This document shows, in pieces, positions 17,555-63,003 of a stretch of DNA of 64,000 bases. The position numbers were made by a program, and so were the translations under genes. The stretch lies in the sequence record KY608965.1. One strand, written 5' to 3'. Under the pieces are notes generated by a model. The model did not search any database. It was not told the DNA's origin and worked only from the letters and a program-made list of their open reading frames with translations. This DNA comes from Escherichia phage phiEC1. Every line of letters starts with the position of its first letter. The stretch's first letter is position 1.

Positions 17555-18049
17555 TTAATTAAGGATATTAACCACAGCACTACGTGGAACCACACTAAAA
17601 TCACCGGCATGAACAACGTTCAGAAGTTCAACACCGTCTTCAATCCACTGATCAGTTACCCATCCATTTACTGGACCTGCGAACGGACGTCGAATTGAAA
17701 CATATTTACACAACAAATCAGTAGGCTCAATAGGCTTAATCAGAGTACCGTACATACAAGCGATATCCATATCAATACAGATATCTTTAACGGGTTCTAC
17801 TTCTTCAATCAACAGTTCAAAGTCGGTGCTTGGAAGGGCGGTAGTAGAAATTGTACCATATGAATTTTTAATTTCTAAGAATAACCAAGGGCCTTCAACT
17901 TGTTTGATGAAGTTAACAATAGTGAAACTATTACCTTGAGTGGCACCTAAAATTTCACAAAACTTTTCATAAGCTCGCACTGAAGCACCATACCAGTTGA
18001 TTTGGTTTTCATCTTTCAGGATGTAAGTAGCCGTAGTATTGATATTCAT
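17555..18049 (-). CDS. hypothetical protein, member 3 of the paralogue triplet (164 aa; MotB-position)
   Basis: Track start is TTG; ATG at 18049 (MNINTT...) with AGGAAA SD; C-terminal GWVTDQWIEDGVELLNVVHAGDFSVVP motif; sits where T4 has motB. Confidence 0.5.
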   Translation of the reverse strand: MNINTTATYILKDENQINWYGASVRAYEKFCEILGATQGNSFTIVNFIKQVEGPWLFLEIKNSYGTISTTALPSTDFELLIEEVEPVKDICIDMDIACMYGTLIKPIEPTDLLCKYVSIRRPFAGPVNGWVTDQWIEDGVELLNVVHAGDFSVVPRSAVVNILN

Positions 18050-18079
18050 AATGTTTTCCTGTTTGGTTAAGATAGAAAG

Positions 18080-18109
18080 ATTATACTCCAACCATCCTTG
18101 GTTGTAAAC
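18080..18109 (-). promoter_or_regulatory. early promoter (GTTTAC N18 TATAAT), repeat family 2
   Basis: Module gttaagatag...ttatactccaaccatccttggttgtaaac at 18066-18109. Confidence 0.5.
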
Positions 18110-18113
18110 TGGT

Positions 18114-18791
18114 TTATCGCTGTTTTACACTTAACGGGTCAGGATTCTCAGGGACATCTTCAAGGCCAAGCGCATAACGCTGAGCATATTTTAACATCAA
18201 AATATCTTTAGCACAATCATGAATACTATCATGGGCAACGAATCCTTTTAGCGTACCCATCGGTAATGGACACATACTTAATCCTCGTGTCAACGAGTAA
18301 GCTTCGATTGCCGTACGAATATCACGTTGAGCCCAGAATTTAACCGGTTCTAATTTATCAGTATCAATATCTGGTTCAAGAACACCTTCATCACGATAGA
18401 GGTCACGAATCAAATCGACCAATATCGGGAAGTCAAAGCTCATACCACGGCACCACATCTGTGATTTCCATTGGTCAACTTTATTAGCTCGACAATAATC
18501 TAAAAAGATTTTAATGCCTTCAAGCGTAGTGACATCGTCTTCAGACGGGGCCAAGTTTTTACGTGCTTCAGCCGATTGTTCTTTCCACCATTTCATAGTG
18601 GATTTAGCGAAAACTCGCTTCCCTTTCTGAGAAGCTAAATTAAATTTAATTCGCTTACCTCGTTGAACAAGTTCTTCAAATGATTCAACAACTTCAGGGT
18701 CGGAATTATATGCAATAACCGCAAGGTCAATAACAGCCGCTTTTGATGTATTGCCGAATGTTTCAAAATCTATAATAACATCAGTGCTCAT
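18114..18791 (-). CDS. dexA: exonuclease A (DnaQ-like 3'-5' exonuclease)
   Basis: 225 aa; IIDFETFG...AVIDLAVIA and C-terminal HDSIHDCAKDILM motifs match T4 DexA as recalled. Confidence 0.9.
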   Translation of the reverse strand: MSTDVIIDFETFGNTSKAAVIDLAVIAYNSDPEVVESFEELVQRGKRIKFNLASQKGKRVFAKSTMKWWKEQSAEARKNLAPSEDDVTTLEGIKIFLDYCRANKVDQWKSQMWCRGMSFDFPILVDLIRDLYRDEGVLEPDIDTDKLEPVKFWAQRDIRTAIEAYSLTRGLSMCPLPMGTLKGFVAHDSIHDCAKDILMLKYAQRYALGLEDVPENPDPLSVKQR

Positions 18792-58038: not shown

Positions 58039-58395
58039 TTAACCCCGGAGTTTATTGAGCTCTTCATAATCAATCCAGGATTCTAGTCCGGATGGCAGGT
58101 CACATTCAATGTTCCACAGAAGCTCTTCAATGGCTTGCAGGCGATTATATTCTTCAACGGTAATGGTAACCATTGGTGCAACCGGTTCTGCCTTTTTAAC
58201 CATTATATCGTTCATCAGGACGTAAAGGTCATCACGAACGACGGTGTCGTTCCAACCCCATGATTTGGCTTCGTAAGCTAATGATGAAGGGAGCACATTT
58301 AAAACTTCAATAATAGTTGGAGCATCAGGACCAAGTTCATTGGCACAAACTTCGTATACATCTTGGAAATCTTTAAGATTTAATGAATATGTCAT
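58039..58395 (-). CDS. hypothetical acidic protein (118 aa)
   Basis: ATG start; ATGA coupling to nrdC. Confidence 0.5.
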   Translation of the reverse strand: MTYSLNLKDFQDVYEVCANELGPDAPTIIEVLNVLPSSLAYEAKSWGWNDTVVRDDLYVLMNDIMVKKAEPVAPMVTITVEEYNRLQAIEELLWNIECDLPSGLESWIDYEELNKLRG

Positions 58396-58655
58396 TTAAA
58401 ATATTCTCGTAGTTGGTCAAAGCCACCAATCGAAGTTCCATCAGGAGCAAACACTTGGGGCATAGTCAATCCGACTTGTGATTCACGTCCAAGCTTAACC
58501 AGAAGCTCAGCAATTTTCTCATCATCAAAAACACCTTTTTCTGGCATAACATTAATGAATTCAAATGGCTGTTTCTTAACAGTCAGCAATCGTTTCGCAT
58601 TATCACAATAAATGCATTTATGAATAGTAGAGTCGTACCCGTACACTTTAAACAT
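58392..58655 (-). CDS. nrdC: thioredoxin/glutaredoxin NrdC
   Basis: Start set to ATG at 58655 (MFKVYGYDSTIHKCIYCDNAKRLL...), 87 aa as in T4 NrdC; CIYC active site. Confidence 0.85.
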   Translation of the reverse strand: MFKVYGYDSTIHKCIYCDNAKRLLTVKKQPFEFINVMPEKGVFDDEKIAELLVKLGRESQVGLTMPQVFAPDGTSIGGFDQLREYFK

Positions 58656-59061
58656 TATTTTTCCTTTCATCGATTAAATATGCAATGCCAAATACAATAC
58701 ATGTAATAAAACCTGTGATACAGATAGAAACCAACAACACTGTACCAAAGAACCAAATCAAGTTATCTTTAGTAGTTTGTTTGATATCCATCTCACGAAT
58801 TTCTATAGCTATCGTATCACCTTTATTCAGAAGCGTATAAAACGATGGTGATACATGCCTGTCAAAAACTCGTCCTTGCTCATCTTTATAGACTGCAATA
58901 AATTCTAATTTAGAATATTTTCCTGTAGATTGACCTGAAATTAATTCCACTACCTCCACAGGAATTACTTTAGTTTCCATGTAAGTATTCTGGCTGTTCC
59001 AAATGAATGGAATAATAGCAAAAACTAAAGCTGCGATAAAACAACGAAGGCTATATCTCAT
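58648..59061 (-). CDS. membrane protein (137 aa, N- and C-terminal transmembrane helices)
   Basis: ATG start; TAATG coupling. Confidence 0.5.
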   Translation of the reverse strand: MRYSLRCFIAALVFAIIPFIWNSQNTYMETKVIPVEVVELISGQSTGKYSKLEFIAVYKDEQGRVFDRHVSPSFYTLLNKGDTIAIEIREMDIKQTTKDNLIWFFGTVLLVSICITGFITCIVFGIAYLIDERKNNV

Positions 59062-59366
59062 TATAATGTTCTCTCAAATTTGTGGAAGCATTTACGGCAT
59101 TTCAATTTCAAGTTATCAGTGGTCCAGTTAACCAGTTGGACTTGGATAGTTCCACATTCCGGGCATGGATGTTTTGCTGCCGATTTGGCAGCATTTTCAC
59201 GTCGTTCAACCATTTTCATTATTTCGTTCCATGCCGGAGGAACGAACTCTTCTTCACCATGAATTTTATCTCGCTGAACAAATTCAATCTTTGAACTATC
59301 ATCAATAAACTTAACTAAGCCATGATTAGTGCTCATATCAATATCCTCTAGAAGACGTAGGTTCAT
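59061..59366 (-). CDS. zinc-ribbon protein (101 aa)
   Basis: CPECG...CRKC motif; ATG start. Confidence 0.5.
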   Translation of the reverse strand: MNLRLLEDIDMSTNHGLVKFIDDSSKIEFVQRDKIHGEEEFVPPAWNEIMKMVERRENAAKSAAKHPCPECGTIQVQLVNWTTDNLKLKCRKCFHKFERTL

Positions 59367-60316
59367 TATAACACCTCAATGGCATTTCGTAAACCGTCCG
59401 CTTTCGCATTCAGAGCTTTTAACGATTTAGTTTGTTCTGCAATCTGGGCTTCGACTTCTTTCAGACGAGATTTGAGGTACTCACGTTCTTCGCTCAAGTT
59501 GTCAACTTTTTCTACTTTAGGTTCTTTAATAGTCTTAAGTTTATACTCGTTAGGGTTCTTCAACTTAATTCGGGTACGAGAACTATATAACATTGATCCG
59601 TTATCTTCGGATTCGTCGAACGTTTCAACAACATCCATAGTCTCTAACAATGTAATAAGTTTATAAGACAACGAACGAATAGTTTTGTTGTGCTTATTAA
59701 TTTCTTCGGCTTTCATGGTACCGAGATTACGTGAGTAGTAATAAGGAACCTGGATATCAATTGATAATGATGCGTTACCATTACCAGTTGGTTTGAATAC
59801 TGCAGTAACCCAATCTTTAACATGAACTTTATTTGTACGGCCATCACCGCCAGTGAATAATTTACGAGAATGTTTAAAAAGCATATTCACTTGTTTATTG
59901 AATTCACAAGCAAATTTATCAGCAAATTTAGTTTCAGGAATGGTAGATAACCAATCAGCCAAATGAGTCTTTTTAACATCATTAACAATAGTGAATTCAA
60001 CCAAATCGGTTTTAGATGTCACAGATTTAATAAAGCTCGGCTTCATAAAGTTTTTGATGTTATCACGAGCTACAGTAGAAGATAATAAACGAGAACGTTT
60101 GAACCATTGAAGCAGGGTCCCTAATGAATGAGAATACGCATTCTGAGTATCTTTACAGATATGATTTTCTTGGCCTGTGTATGTACCAAAATCGCGAAGA
60201 ATACCACTTACTACATCTCGGTGTGGAACATCAAATCCTAGTGCACCAACAGCGCGCTGGGCATGAACGTTAGCGATAAGACCGGCAAAGTATTCAATGT
60301 AATGTGAACGTGTCAT
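59366..60316 (-). CDS. hypothetical protein with C-terminal coiled coil (316 aa)
   Basis: ATG start; C-terminal heptad-rich segment; family-2 promoter module upstream. Confidence 0.5.
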   Translation of the reverse strand: MTRSHYIEYFAGLIANVHAQRAVGALGFDVPHRDVVSGILRDFGTYTGQENHICKDTQNAYSHSLGTLLQWFKRSRLLSSTVARDNIKNFMKPSFIKSVTSKTDLVEFTIVNDVKKTHLADWLSTIPETKFADKFACEFNKQVNMLFKHSRKLFTGGDGRTNKVHVKDWVTAVFKPTGNGNASLSIDIQVPYYYSRNLGTMKAEEINKHNKTIRSLSYKLITLLETMDVVETFDESEDNGSMLYSSRTRIKLKNPNEYKLKTIKEPKVEKVDNLSEEREYLKSRLKEVEAQIAEQTKSLKALNAKADGLRNAIEVL

Positions 60317-60344
60317 AATATTTTCCTCTCGTTAAGATAGATTC

Positions 60345-60374
60345 ATTATACTCAAACCATCCTTGGTTGTAAAC
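60345..60374 (-). promoter_or_regulatory. early promoter (GTTTAC N18 TATAAT), repeat family 2
   Basis: Module gttaagatag...ttatactcaaaccatccttggttgtaaac at 60331-60374. Confidence 0.5.
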
Positions 60375-60378
60375 TGAT

Positions 60379-61335
60379 TTATGATTTTAATGCATTCATT
60401 GCGTTAAAAAGTTTAGAGTACTGCAACTGGAGATTGGTCACCACCTGTTGAGCATCACGAAGCTTAGCTTGTGCCTTATCAAGTTCAGCAGACAGTTGGT
60501 CTACAGTAGCCTTGATTTGATTGTAATGATAATCTTCAGCCGGAAGAAGGTCATTAGAAACATTTAGTTTTACTGCCGACAGTTTGCACACATTTGGCGA
60601 ACCTTTAAACATACCAGATTGTGCTGGAGAATATGCGCCTAGAACCTCTGCATTACCGACTGGTGTTGCTGTAATATTGCCTTCAAACAATGCATTTTCC
60701 TTTTTAAGATTTTGATAGTATTCAGAGTCTTTGTGCCACCATGGTGCAGGAACCTTTTTACCAATAGATACACGAGCCTGGATAGCGATATGGCCCTTAT
60801 TCTTGATAACGTCGATAATATTAAGCTCACGAGAATAAATTGCTTTAATCTCGTGGATATTATCACCTAAAACTTCCAACGCTTGATGGAATACACGAGC
60901 AACGTTATCATTCTTAGGTTTATACGTAAGAGTAAACTCATTCTCACTGATAACCATGATTTCTAACTTATCGTAAGTATATTTCAAATGTTTCATGTTA
61001 ATTGCTTGAGGACGAATACGAGAAGCAATGGCCATCAAATTGTTAAGGTTATTTCTGAACTGTTTAGCAAAATATTGTCCATAACCGCCAATACAAAAAT
61101 TACGAAGTTTCTGTTTGGCCAGTAAACGGCTGAACTCACCATTTTTAATGAACTCTTTAACGGGTGTGTTAGTAACACATTCAAATTGAGTAAACTTACG
61201 AGAATTAATCCCATAATACGAACAGATTTCCTCAATCTCTTCAGGAGTCTTTACAGGCATACGGATAGGATTAGGTCCTGGAGTATATGCGTTCGAGGTA
61301 AATTCTTTGATAAGTTCTCTACGTGTAATAGCCAT
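60379..61335 (-). CDS. hypothetical protein with C-terminal coiled coil (318 aa)
   Basis: ATG start; C-terminal coiled coil. Confidence 0.5.
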   Translation of the reverse strand: MAITRRELIKEFTSNAYTPGPNPIRMPVKTPEEIEEICSYYGINSRKFTQFECVTNTPVKEFIKNGEFSRLLAKQKLRNFCIGGYGQYFAKQFRNNLNNLMAIASRIRPQAINMKHLKYTYDKLEIMVISENEFTLTYKPKNDNVARVFHQALEVLGDNIHEIKAIYSRELNIIDVIKNKGHIAIQARVSIGKKVPAPWWHKDSEYYQNLKKENALFEGNITATPVGNAEVLGAYSPAQSGMFKGSPNVCKLSAVKLNVSNDLLPAEDYHYNQIKATVDQLSAELDKAQAKLRDAQQVVTNLQLQYSKLFNAMNALKS

Positions 61336-61362
61336 TTTATATTCCTCATGTTGAAAAATTTA

Positions 61363-61391
61363 TTATACTCCAACCATCCTTGGTTGTACAT
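61363..61391 (-). promoter_or_regulatory. early promoter (-10 TATAAT), repeat family 2
   Basis: Module ttatactccaaccatccttggttgtaca. Confidence 0.45.
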
Positions 61392-62386
61392 CATTCCTTA
61401 AGAAGTTTTACTACTTGAATAAGATTAGCTCGTTCTGTTTTATTTTTACCGTTTAAGCCTGCTAATCGTGAGATTTCATCGTCAGTCTGTTGAATAGTTA
61501 CATTAAGTTCGTTAATCAAAGCTTCAAAGTATTTGATTTGCTCAGCATGTTTTGATTCAAATTTCTGAACCGGAATAACGTCTTGGTTTAGTTCGTCAAT
61601 AAGGTCTTTAAGAGCATCTTCTTGGTTGATATCGTATTCAACTTCTTTTATTTCTTCAACGAGCTCGTCTTTATATCTAACGTCTTTTAGTCCTGGAGCT
61701 GGTCCTGAAATCTCTTCTTTAAGAGTACAAACATACCCAATACGGTATCCAATGCCGTCTCGCTTGATATCAACTTCGTCGATAAATCCACAATGTTTAA
61801 GACCAGAGCCGATTATGTCAAAATATCCTTGACGTCGTCCTTCAAACGTTACACGAACTACTAAGACAGTTTTGCCACCGACCTTTTGAAGCTCACATTT
61901 ATAAAAGTTTGTTGAACCTGAATAACGTGGATGAGTTTTAAAGTTCATCTGACGATCTAAGCCCATTTGTAAACGTGCTGTTACAGCCATAAAACGTGTT
62001 TGGTTCTCGTTAAGATGAGCAACGATCCATTTCAAAGGCATTTTACACTGTTCACGTCCGAACAAATCAGTACGTCCTAGATTACGCAGGATGTTGTTAG
62101 AGTTAATCATCGACAGAACGTTAAGTTTATTCAGCGCGCTGAAGATTCCATCAGCCATTGATTTTCCATAACCTTTACACGCTTTAATAAGCGCTCGCGG
62201 CAGATTAGTATAGATTTCAGACGGCATATGAAAATCAAATTTACTAGTCAGTAATTGATGAACTTGGATAGCAATTTGCTCATAATTAAGTGCTCTGCGA
62301 TCGTTATGGTCTTTAAACCACACTTTAATCTGTGAAGCACATAAACCGTTAATTTCATGTTTTACCGCATCAGATGTAATGCTCAT
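61391..62386 (-). CDS. hypothetical protein with C-terminal coiled coil (331 aa)
   Basis: ATG start; C-terminal coiled coil. Confidence 0.5.
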   Translation of the reverse strand: MSITSDAVKHEINGLCASQIKVWFKDHNDRRALNYEQIAIQVHQLLTSKFDFHMPSEIYTNLPRALIKACKGYGKSMADGIFSALNKLNVLSMINSNNILRNLGRTDLFGREQCKMPLKWIVAHLNENQTRFMAVTARLQMGLDRQMNFKTHPRYSGSTNFYKCELQKVGGKTVLVVRVTFEGRRQGYFDIIGSGLKHCGFIDEVDIKRDGIGYRIGYVCTLKEEISGPAPGLKDVRYKDELVEEIKEVEYDINQEDALKDLIDELNQDVIPVQKFESKHAEQIKYFEALINELNVTIQQTDDEISRLAGLNGKNKTERANLIQVVKLLKE

Positions 62387-62448
62387 AACTATTTCCTCAG
62401 ATTGAATTGGAACTCAAAACCATTATAACCCGTCCTTGGGTAAAGCGT

Positions 62449-62976
62449 TTATGCGTGAACCGTCTTTAAACGTTCTTCAAATTTCCTAAGAGTACTAATA
62501 CGTTCTGCTTTCTGTTTTGTGTAGTTTGCAATACGTTCTGAAGTGAGAGCGTATCGTTCGTTTACTGTTTCTTTCATGAAGTCAGGGATTTCACGAGAAG
62601 CTTTAATTTCATCAAACTTATCAAGTACTGCCTGATCTTCAGCGATTAAATTTTCGTACATCTCGATATCTTTCTTGATGAAGTCGATATCTTCCTGGGT
62701 TACTTTGGATAAACGAGATGCTTTATCCTTTTTGTACTGCTCGTTAGTTTCACGAGACCAGAATAATGTACGTTTTTTGTTAGTGTTTTTGTAGACTTCC
62801 ACAATTCCAACTGAATCGATGATAACAATCCAATTCCAGCGAGATTTGAAAATCTGACCTCCATCCACGGTAATCTCGTTACCATAAGCAACATCGTTAA
62901 AGAACTTGCTTTGTGCTTCAGATTTAAATTTACCGTCGTTATAATTTACCAGGTTGAAAATATCTTTAGCGTTCAT
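62449..62976 (-). CDS. hypothetical protein (175 aa)
   Basis: ATG start with GGAGG SD. Confidence 0.5.
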   Translation of the reverse strand: MNAKDIFNLVNYNDGKFKSEAQSKFFNDVAYGNEITVDGGQIFKSRWNWIVIIDSVGIVEVYKNTNKKRTLFWSRETNEQYKKDKASRLSKVTQEDIDFIKKDIEMYENLIAEDQAVLDKFDEIKASREIPDFMKETVNERYALTSERIANYTKQKAERISTLRKFEERLKTVHA

Positions 62977-63003
62977 GTTTTACCTCCAGTAGTTGATAGG
63001 TCT

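Follow-up and report, generated by a model that had tools for sequence, protein, structure and literature searches.

Three consecutive genes of Escherichia phage phiEC1 are very probably diverged paralogs of one coiled-coil-tailed superfamily in T4-like phages

Genes A, B, and C of the nrdC.3 to nrdC.6 block

We examined a 64,000-nucleotide (nt) stretch of Escherichia phage phiEC1 (KY608965.1), hereafter the window, and within it three consecutive genes on the minus strand: A (59366..60316), B (60379..61335), and C (61391..62386), which encode proteins of 316, 318, and 331 amino acids (aa), respectively. A sequence-only reading of this DNA had described three genes of about 320 aa without obvious mutual similarity, each with a C-terminal coiled coil and two behind the same promoter module, and had proposed that they could be diverged paralogs or else analogous effectors acting on the host or its defenses. 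These observations were confirmed in full and the interpretation is supported: A, B, and C are very probably diverged paralogs with coiled-coil tails. Profile comparisons support their placement in one putative Tevenvirinae superfamily that takes in T4 NrdC.3, NrdC.4, NrdC.5, and NrdC.6, along with single-copy relatives in other genera. The genes themselves, and a link between NrdC.5 and the defense system Dsr1, were already known; what is new is the joining of four ORFan families as one superfamily in which the tail is constant and the head varies.

The three genes occupy the block annotated as nrdC.3 to nrdC.6 in T4, with NrdD, endonuclease VII, Pin, and NrdC on one flank and NrdC.8, NrdC.9, and NrdC.10 on the other. 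A 4-kb region here is 97% identical to Escherichia phage PhAPEC2 and other RB69-like Mosigviruses, and by this similarity the source of the window is a Mosigvirus of the RB69/PhAPEC2 kind. The open reading frame (ORF) of A matched phrog_1435 over residues 1-316 (E = 4.7e-102); homologs of A carry PF26897, and its position, adjoining nrdC.2, is orthologous to that of T4 NrdC.3, to which it is 56% identical. C matched phrog_2257 over its full length (E = 2.3e-127), its homologs carry PF26899, and it adjoins nrdC.8, again an orthologous position, with 29% identity to T4 NrdC.6 (E = 3e-18). Judged by position and full-length profile match, A is the NrdC.3 ortholog and C the NrdC.6 ortholog. B is a member of the NrdC.5 family (Pfam DUF7235): residues 14-317 aligned to positions 1-307 of the 307 in PF23882 at 393.2 bits (cutoff 30), and BLASTP against T4 NrdC.5 gave E = 3.7e-11 with 25.6% identity over 308 residues. 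None of the three families extends beyond Tevenvirinae. An exhaustive HMMER search with the C profile returned 6 cluster representatives among 1.84 billion proteins, all from Tevenvirinae, so that no deeper C profile could be built. Beyond DUF7235, Pfam gave nothing significant for A to C, and PADLOC and NCBIfam gave weak matches only, far below curated cutoffs.

Many GenBank records label the homologs of nrdC.2 to nrdC.10 that match window positions 59000-63000 as "thioredoxin." Neither Pfam nor NCBIfam gave a thioredoxin or glutaredoxin match for A, B, or C at E ≤ 0.1, and no CxxC motif occurs in any of the three sequences. Because A, B, and C lack both, the label evidently spread from the gene symbol nrdC.N, and this widespread annotation of their homologs is corrected here.

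Two further annotation matters concern the NrdC.6 family. In the T4 reference (NC_000866; locus L001, 12067-12894), NrdC.6 is 275 aa long with a divergent C terminus that lacks the conserved tail; its close relatives have 295 aa, and in the T4 annotation table of the HIDEN-SEQ preprint the nrdC.6 gene measures 891 nt. From these lengths, the reference record seems to carry a frameshift or to reflect differences in sequencing or strain. In phage ATK47 (NC_055708.1), a "direct repeat sequence1 posible binding site of StbAB" is annotated within the coding region of the C ortholog.

C-terminal tails

Heptad periodicity was assessed with an a/d-register score of our own, computed in 28-residue windows and compared with 200 shuffles per protein. 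The coiled-coil-type tails of A (residues 267-316; 59369..59518, minus strand) and B (residues 266-318; 60382..60540, minus strand) had scores reached by 0 of 200 shuffles; the a/d register of A runs unbroken to the C terminus, and the two tails are equal in length and register. The helical tail of C (residues 281-331; 61394..61546, minus strand) was weaker, with a score for residues 281-309 reached by 2 of 200 shuffles; beyond these heptads, a Gly/Asn-rich break is followed by a terminal helix. Each of the three thus has a/d periodicity beyond chance over at least four heptads, in keeping with the coiled coils that had been proposed. When C-terminal heptad scores were ranked for 59 proxy genes (120 aa or longer) across the window, A, B, and C took the first three places and the adjoining upstream gene at 62449-62976 the fourth; by simple counting, the chance that four adjacent genes hold the top four scores is about 56/455,126, or roughly 1e-4.

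The a/d pattern is kept across genera, and a similar ending, ...L-x-x-A-[LIV]-x-x-L-K, is found in all families, with the two terminal leucines present in at least 90% of sequences. Comparison of the NrdC.3 and NrdC.5 family tails with hhalign gave 77% and E = 1.9e-5 over 45 columns, which is also the tail match that supports the assignment in B. Weak sequence matches in the Protein Data Bank (PDB) fell on the tail only (a GCN4 fusion and the IF1 dimerization helix) and were not significant (E = 0.005-0.03).

Profile evidence for a common head

Pairwise BLASTP among A, B, and C returned nothing better than E = 1.8, which agrees with the absence of obvious similarity noted before. We therefore rely on profiles, for which the block was assembled from 23 phage and IMG/VR loci and one profile was made for each family: F3 (NrdC.3), F4 (NrdC.4), F5 (NrdC.5), and F6 (NrdC.6). 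Tails were cut from the profiles because coiled-coil composition could otherwise create false similarity. Among the N-terminal domains, F3 against F4 gave 98% and E = 3e-13 over 212 columns, and F4 against F5 gave 62% and E = 7e-5 over 158 columns. When F3 and F4 were merged, the hhalign match to F5 reached 91% and E = 1e-6 over 155 columns (reversed control, 0.85). The link between A and B thus runs through the NrdC.4 family, which the window phage lacks. Direct comparisons of F6 with F3, F4, or F5 were insignificant, and merged F3/4/5 against F6 gave 15% and E = 0.0018 over 122 columns only. Reversed-sequence controls of the family-against-family comparisons all had E ≥ 0.036.

The connection to F6 came from other genera. 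Highly conserved NrdC.10 served as the anchor for fetching the locus from Kanagawavirus PEi20, Tegunavirus phiR1-RT, Jiaodavirus JD18, and Karamvirus myPSH1140, and the locus of Acinetobacter phage Acj61 was taken directly by accession. In all five phages, the locus includes one or more genes of 290-356 aa whose products end in a significant heptad tail. Three of the encoded proteins, from Edwardsiella, Yersinia, and Klebsiella phages, acted as bridges. Alone, PEi20 ORF-089 matched F3/4/5 at 3.5e-5 and F6 at 1.3e-4, phiR1-RT g087 matched them at 1.8e-5 and 2.7e-4, and JD18_070 matched F3+F4 at 4.8e-7; in BLASTP against phiR1-RT g087, A of the window gave E = 1.5e-6 and C gave E = 0.002. A bridge profile built from these three proteins, with tails removed, matched F3+F4 at 97% (E = 2.7e-11) and F6 at 93% (E = 2.7e-7, 173 columns), with reversed controls of 0.23-0.45 and a lowest value of 0.014 among 42 single-sequence controls. 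F6 together with the bridges matched the F3/4/5 N-terminal profile at 90% and E = 1.8e-6 (control, 0.53). As a hidden Markov model (HMM) with no window sequence inside, the bridge profile ranked A first, C second, and B third among all window ORFs.

When 16 members were aligned independently with MAFFT (A6), the shared motifs were again evident: FK.SRlLS...A...L.NFgk, F...F..N...iL....RL..Gd.R, and L..aL..Md.VE. Together with the hhalign results, this alignment placed the conserved head core of A at residues 65-221 (59654..60124, minus strand), with motifs FKRSRLLSSTVARDNIKNF, FNKQVNMLFKHSRKLFTGGDGR, and LITLLETMDVVE. The core of B, at residues 62-213 (60697..61152, minus strand), was defined by the alignment and by hhalign of F3+F4 against F5, and has motifs FSRLLAKQKLRNF, FRNNLNNLMAIASR, and ELNIIDVIKN; that of C, at residues 78-200 (61787..62155, minus strand), was defined by the alignment and by the F6-plus-bridges profile match, and has motifs LNVLSMINSNNILRNL and LNENQTRFMAVTARLQMGLDR. 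Homology of the heads was thus found at the profile level with clean negative controls.

Some proteins at the locus were considered as members and set aside. Acj61 p120 and p121 and a 356-aa ORF of myPSH1140 share the locus, size, and tail, but without a sequence link they are candidates at the level of architecture only. This unannotated ORF of Enterobacter phage myPSH1140 (locus L030, 12261-13331) has a strong C-terminal heptad tail and fills a 1.1-kb annotation gap where other genera have a superfamily gene. The NrdC.8 homolog of the window was rejected as a short member, since hhalign against all superfamily profiles gave E ≥ 0.0098. In Kanagawavirus, Tegunavirus, Jiaodavirus, and Karamvirus (L027, 10147-10917; L028, 10728-11519; L029, 10776-11564; L030, 10843-11619), the superfamily gene is immediately preceded by a member of a separate conserved family of about 260 aa, tail-less and with the C-terminal motif ...LENGATVYGSLPK...FKRPS..., which is absent from the window block. 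In Acj61, p076 and p077 (L026, 9028-11322) are neighbors of 372 aa each, and the annotation calls one a putative copy of its partner; here, too, an uncharacterized gene of a T4-like phage has undergone tandem duplication.

Structure models

AlphaFold2 models of A and C, built from shallow alignments, were poor, with mean predicted local distance difference test (pLDDT) values of 56 and 49. The model of A has a single long helix at residues 275-315 (pLDDT ~67-83), and that of C has broken low-confidence helices over residues 256-330, including 281-294, 302-312, and 316-330. The order of predicted elements is common to both: some five helices bundled at the N terminus, a pair of helices at ~118-146, a beta-hairpin from residue 162 in each, then a further helix and hairpin, and finally a C-terminal helix beyond a disordered linker. 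Rather than unrelated folds lacking coiled coils, these low-confidence models thus present the same apparent element order and C-terminal helices. Foldseek against BFVD gave two neighbors for both proteins, namely, E5E4A2 of Acj61 (A, 2.4e-4; C, 1.8e-3) and A0A1Z1LY96 of Serratia phage CBH8 (A, 2.3e-4; C, 3.6e-3), all with template modeling (TM) scores of 0.2-0.3. Judging by its length, E5E4A2 is Acj61p121, which is located between nrdC and nrdC.10. Foldseek of A against the PDB gave no match at E ≤ 0.001, and PDB sequence searches gave nothing for the heads.

Divergence, selection, and copy number

Identity to T4 was 56% for A, 26% for B, and 29% for C, compared with 83-99% for neighboring genes. 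In every family, tails were better conserved than heads, as measured by mean identity over pairs with diverged heads (head versus tail: F3, 58 versus 79%; F4, 45 versus 67%; F5, 25 versus 33%; F6, 32 versus 59%). Between A and its T4 counterpart, the tail is 71% and the head 57% identical at equal synonymous divergence, and between C and Tequatrovirus NrdC.6 the values are 59% and 31%. Synonymous codon differences at conserved residues in six pairs were, for tail versus head, 50 versus 46, 38 versus 26, 54 versus 62, 62 versus 55, 57 versus 51, and 52 versus 45%, so that synonymous divergence of the tail equaled or exceeded that of the head in five of the six. Since such differences are as frequent in tails as in heads, conservation of the tail reflects selection on the protein rather than recent exchange of DNA.

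Superfamily genes were found at the same locus in every genus examined, in changing sets. Tequatrovirus has NrdC.6,.5,.4, and.3; Mosigvirus has.6,.5, and.3; and Dhakavirus-like phages have.6,.5, and.4 and lack NrdC.3. The Mosigvirus Bas47 (AlbertHofmann) shares the block of the window phage. Phage ESCO47 lacks B and phage N2 lacks.4 and.5, and phages with one, two, three, or four members exist. Rapid divergence of heads combined with gain and loss between close relatives is typical of arms-race genes.

Two phages carry remnants of members. In ACG-C40 (L003, 5805-6213), a deletion scar joins the first ~69 residues of NrdC.5 to an unannotated remnant of the last ~72 residues of NrdC.3, and in Pinarejo (L004, 6001-6135) an unannotated remnant of the NrdC.6 tail persists. 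Tail shuffling, which the tail-only matches in these two phages might have implied, was rejected, as both are deletion remnants.

Promoters and neighboring genes

A and B were found to lie behind the same promoter module, as had been described: a shared cassette of about 60 nt that combines promoter, leader, and ribosome-binding site. Upstream of A it holds a putative T4-type early promoter (TTTACA-17-TATAAT; 60345..60373, minus strand) that matches the published T4/PST early promoter consensus TTTACW-N17-TAYWAT (PMC4122927) exactly, and upstream of B an early-promoter-like site (TGTACA-17-TATAAT; 61362..61390, minus strand) with one mismatch, whose spacer is identical to that of A at 16 of 17 positions. 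A third near-identical cassette (CAGTTTACAACCAAGGATGGTTGGAGTATAAT...) occurs near 18090 on the minus strand (window 17555-18130), where it precedes a 164-aa ORF starting at 18049; with three copies in the window, the same regulatory module is reused some 42 kb from A and B. The region upstream of C differs from this cassette and contains a candidate middle promoter resembling a MotA box (CGCTTTA, 13 nt, TATAAT; 62422..62447, minus strand), a function that we infer from its sequence. Of 14 distinct NrdC.6-family genes, 8 have the CGCTTTA-13-TATAAT arrangement in their upstream region, compared with 0.9% of random 110-nt windows.

Directly upstream of C lies the 175-aa NrdC.8 homolog (62449..62976, minus strand), which is 83% identical to T4 NrdC.8 and has a helical heptad C terminus. 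Gene order differs from that of T4 at window positions 58392-59366: an NrdC.7-like membrane protein (58648-59061) is flanked by nrdC and the NrdC.2-like gene rather than by nrdC.6 and nrdC.8. No homolog of NrdC.1, whose T4 gene is a reported Septu inhibitor, was found in the window at 54-64 kb. An apparently interrupted NrdC.10 at the edge of the window was dismissed, as the ORF simply extends past the window end.

Proposed counter-defense function and alternative explanations

The T4 gene nrdC.5, described as an uncharacterized early gene, is reported to restore infection by a deletion mutant on hosts with Dsr1 from ECOR17, a SIR2-domain defense thought to deplete NAD+ (PMC9391042). A 2025 preprint (10.1101/2025.11.20.689424) reports T4 nrdC.1 as an inhibitor of Septu and bas37_0203 as an inhibitor of Druantia III, and its supplement lists T4 nrdC.3 to nrdC.6 as nonessential on a laboratory host. 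By the coordinates in that supplement, bas37_0203 is a 175-aa gene after NrdC.7 and hence the ortholog of NrdC.8, the family of the window gene at 62449-62976. From the roles reported for nrdC.1, nrdC.5, and nrdC.8, A, B, and C sit inside a counter-defense island, and one of their three families has a demonstrated member.

The explanation that we favor, with moderate confidence, is that A, B, and C belong to a paralog superfamily of early-expressed oligomeric inhibitors of host immunity. Each protein would consist of a head of roughly 250 residues (a helical bundle at the N terminus, then an alpha/beta core), a flexible linker, and a C-terminal coiled-coil tail of 45-55 residues. The genes would be nonessential accessory genes, A and B transcribed from their own early promoters and C from a MotA-type promoter. 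The tail would oligomerize the protein, and the fast-evolving head would bind and neutralize a host immune protein, with each paralog suited to its own target or variant of a target; T4 NrdC.5, the counterpart of B, would neutralize the SIR2-type, NAD+-depleting defense Dsr1. We infer oligomerization, direct binding, and an anti-defense role for A, C, and B of the window. Support for the anti-defense reading of the three is indirect, and we give about an even chance that all three act against host defense. More tentatively, and perhaps doubtfully, the superfamily might be a head-swappable counter-defense scaffold widespread among T4-like phages, in which a conserved coiled-coil handle oligomerizes, the fast-evolving heads each neutralize a different immune sensor, and the array grows and shrinks by duplication and deletion, yielding a small and diversifying repertoire against bacterial immunity. 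Were this so, A and C would be undiscovered inhibitors of defense systems other than Dsr1, and the Acj61 proteins of similar build at this locus would count as very remote members.

Several results weigh against this favored explanation or parts of it. F5 is the weakest link in the superfamily, its match to the bridge profile reaching only E = 6e-4. Direct statistical evidence that tails of different families are homologous comes only from the comparison of F3 with F5, and when one family was left out of a mixed tail HMM, that family was in no case retrieved above background; accordingly, we do not claim that all tails are statistically homologous. With both models poor, identity of the head fold in A and C is not demonstrated. 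PADLOC, NCBIfam, and PDB searches gave no match with a mechanistic handle for A to C. On the functional side, no function is reported for any NrdC.3, NrdC.4, or NrdC.6 member, and among the transposon-screen rows examined in the preprint supplement (10.1101/2025.11.20.689424), none shows a significant conditional phenotype for nrdC.3, nrdC.4, or nrdC.6. B is only 26% identical to T4 NrdC.5, and anti-Dsr1 activity may therefore not be conserved in it.

Four other explanations were weighed. That A, B, and C are unrelated and arrived at one size and a C-terminal coiled coil by convergence would fit the lack of pairwise BLAST similarity, their standing as three separate families in PHROGs and Pfam, the insignificant direct F6 comparisons, and the negative leave-one-out tail HMM. 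We regard such convergence as very improbable, because bridge proteins connect F6 with F3/F4 (E = 1e-7 to 1e-11; reversed controls clean), the alignment keeps a consistent register with shared motifs, the locus of the genes is the same in all genera examined, and the order of secondary structure appears parallel in the A and C models. The least credible account, one that we hold to be extremely improbable, is that tails persist through constraint or exchange at the DNA level (cassette recombination or signals within the coding sequence) rather than through protein function. It draws on the hyperplastic nature of the region, whose repeated promoter cassettes are believed to promote shuffling (PMC2839356, PMC4122927), and on the tails kept by deletion remnants; against it stand the synonymous differences, as frequent at conserved residues of tails as of heads, and the heptad a/d pattern maintained across genera.

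The remaining two accept the paralogy. The paralogs might depend on one another, with similar tails forming a hetero-oligomeric coiled coil and thereby one multiheaded complex with a single function, as the shared tail end with its conserved leucines, the equal length and register of the A and B tails, and the adjacency and putative early-to-middle expression of the genes would allow. This is improbable: phages with one, two, three, or four members exist, which implies that each must work without the others, and T4 nrdC.5 alone is reported to have complemented a deletion mutant, which may have lacked other paralogs as well (PMC9391042). The rival that we take most seriously, although we think it unlikely, is that the genes are true paralogs with another job, such as host takeover, regulation, or competition between phages, the effect of NrdC.5 on Dsr1 being indirect or lineage specific. 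Among the reports cited here, T4 NrdC.5 is the sole member with a phenotype and none is given for A or C, and no defense-related domain was found in Pfam, PADLOC, or NCBIfam. Yet the locus is rich in reported counter-defense genes (nrdC.1, nrdC.5, and nrdC.8), the genes are listed as nonessential on the laboratory host, and heads that diverge fast in genes gained and lost between close relatives resemble an arms race.

T4-like phages have many accessory genes to which no function has been assigned, and among these the nrdC.1-nrdC.11 block is emerging as a counter-defense island. Of its ORFan families, four of the largest would form one superfamily; NrdC.5, whose effect on Dsr1 is the sole known phenotype among the four, is one of them. 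Three seemingly unrelated hypothetical proteins thereby become a comparable series, for which we predict specificity in the head and common machinery in the tail, and NrdC.3, NrdC.4, and NrdC.6 become concrete candidates for new inhibitors of bacterial immunity.

Comparison with known systems

In their setting, A and B recall the promoter-early stem-loop (PeSL) mobile cassettes of T4-type phages: each lies behind a repeated cassette with a T4-type early promoter, and the region differs in gene content between relatives. They differ in that the sole hairpin seen at the A/B cassette is a 5-bp AACCA/TGGTT stem inside the promoter spacer. Of the other island genes, nrdC.1 (Septu) and nrdC.8/bas37_0203 (Druantia III) resemble the superfamily in being nonessential and in their reported action on defense systems, and NrdC.8 also in its helical heptad C terminus; they lack detectable homology to it and are far smaller, at about 80 aa (243 nt) and 175 aa. 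DSAD1 of phage SPbeta, an inhibitor of the SIR2-type defense DSR2 (PMC10973363), offers a functional analogy only, that of a phage protein set against a defense-associated sirtuin; it comes from a different phage group and is likened to NrdC.5 by description, not by sequence.

The closest counterparts are the T4 proteins. A and C belong with NrdC.3 and NrdC.6 as their orthologs; NrdC.3, NrdC.4, and NrdC.6 are kept separate in public classifications (PF26897 and PF26899; phrog_1435 and phrog_2257) and are here united with NrdC.5. B, a full-length member of DUF7235, shares with T4 NrdC.5 an equivalent position, a similar size, and the same layout of head and coiled coil, and differs from it in the low identity of 26% and in one extra heptad in the T4 tail.

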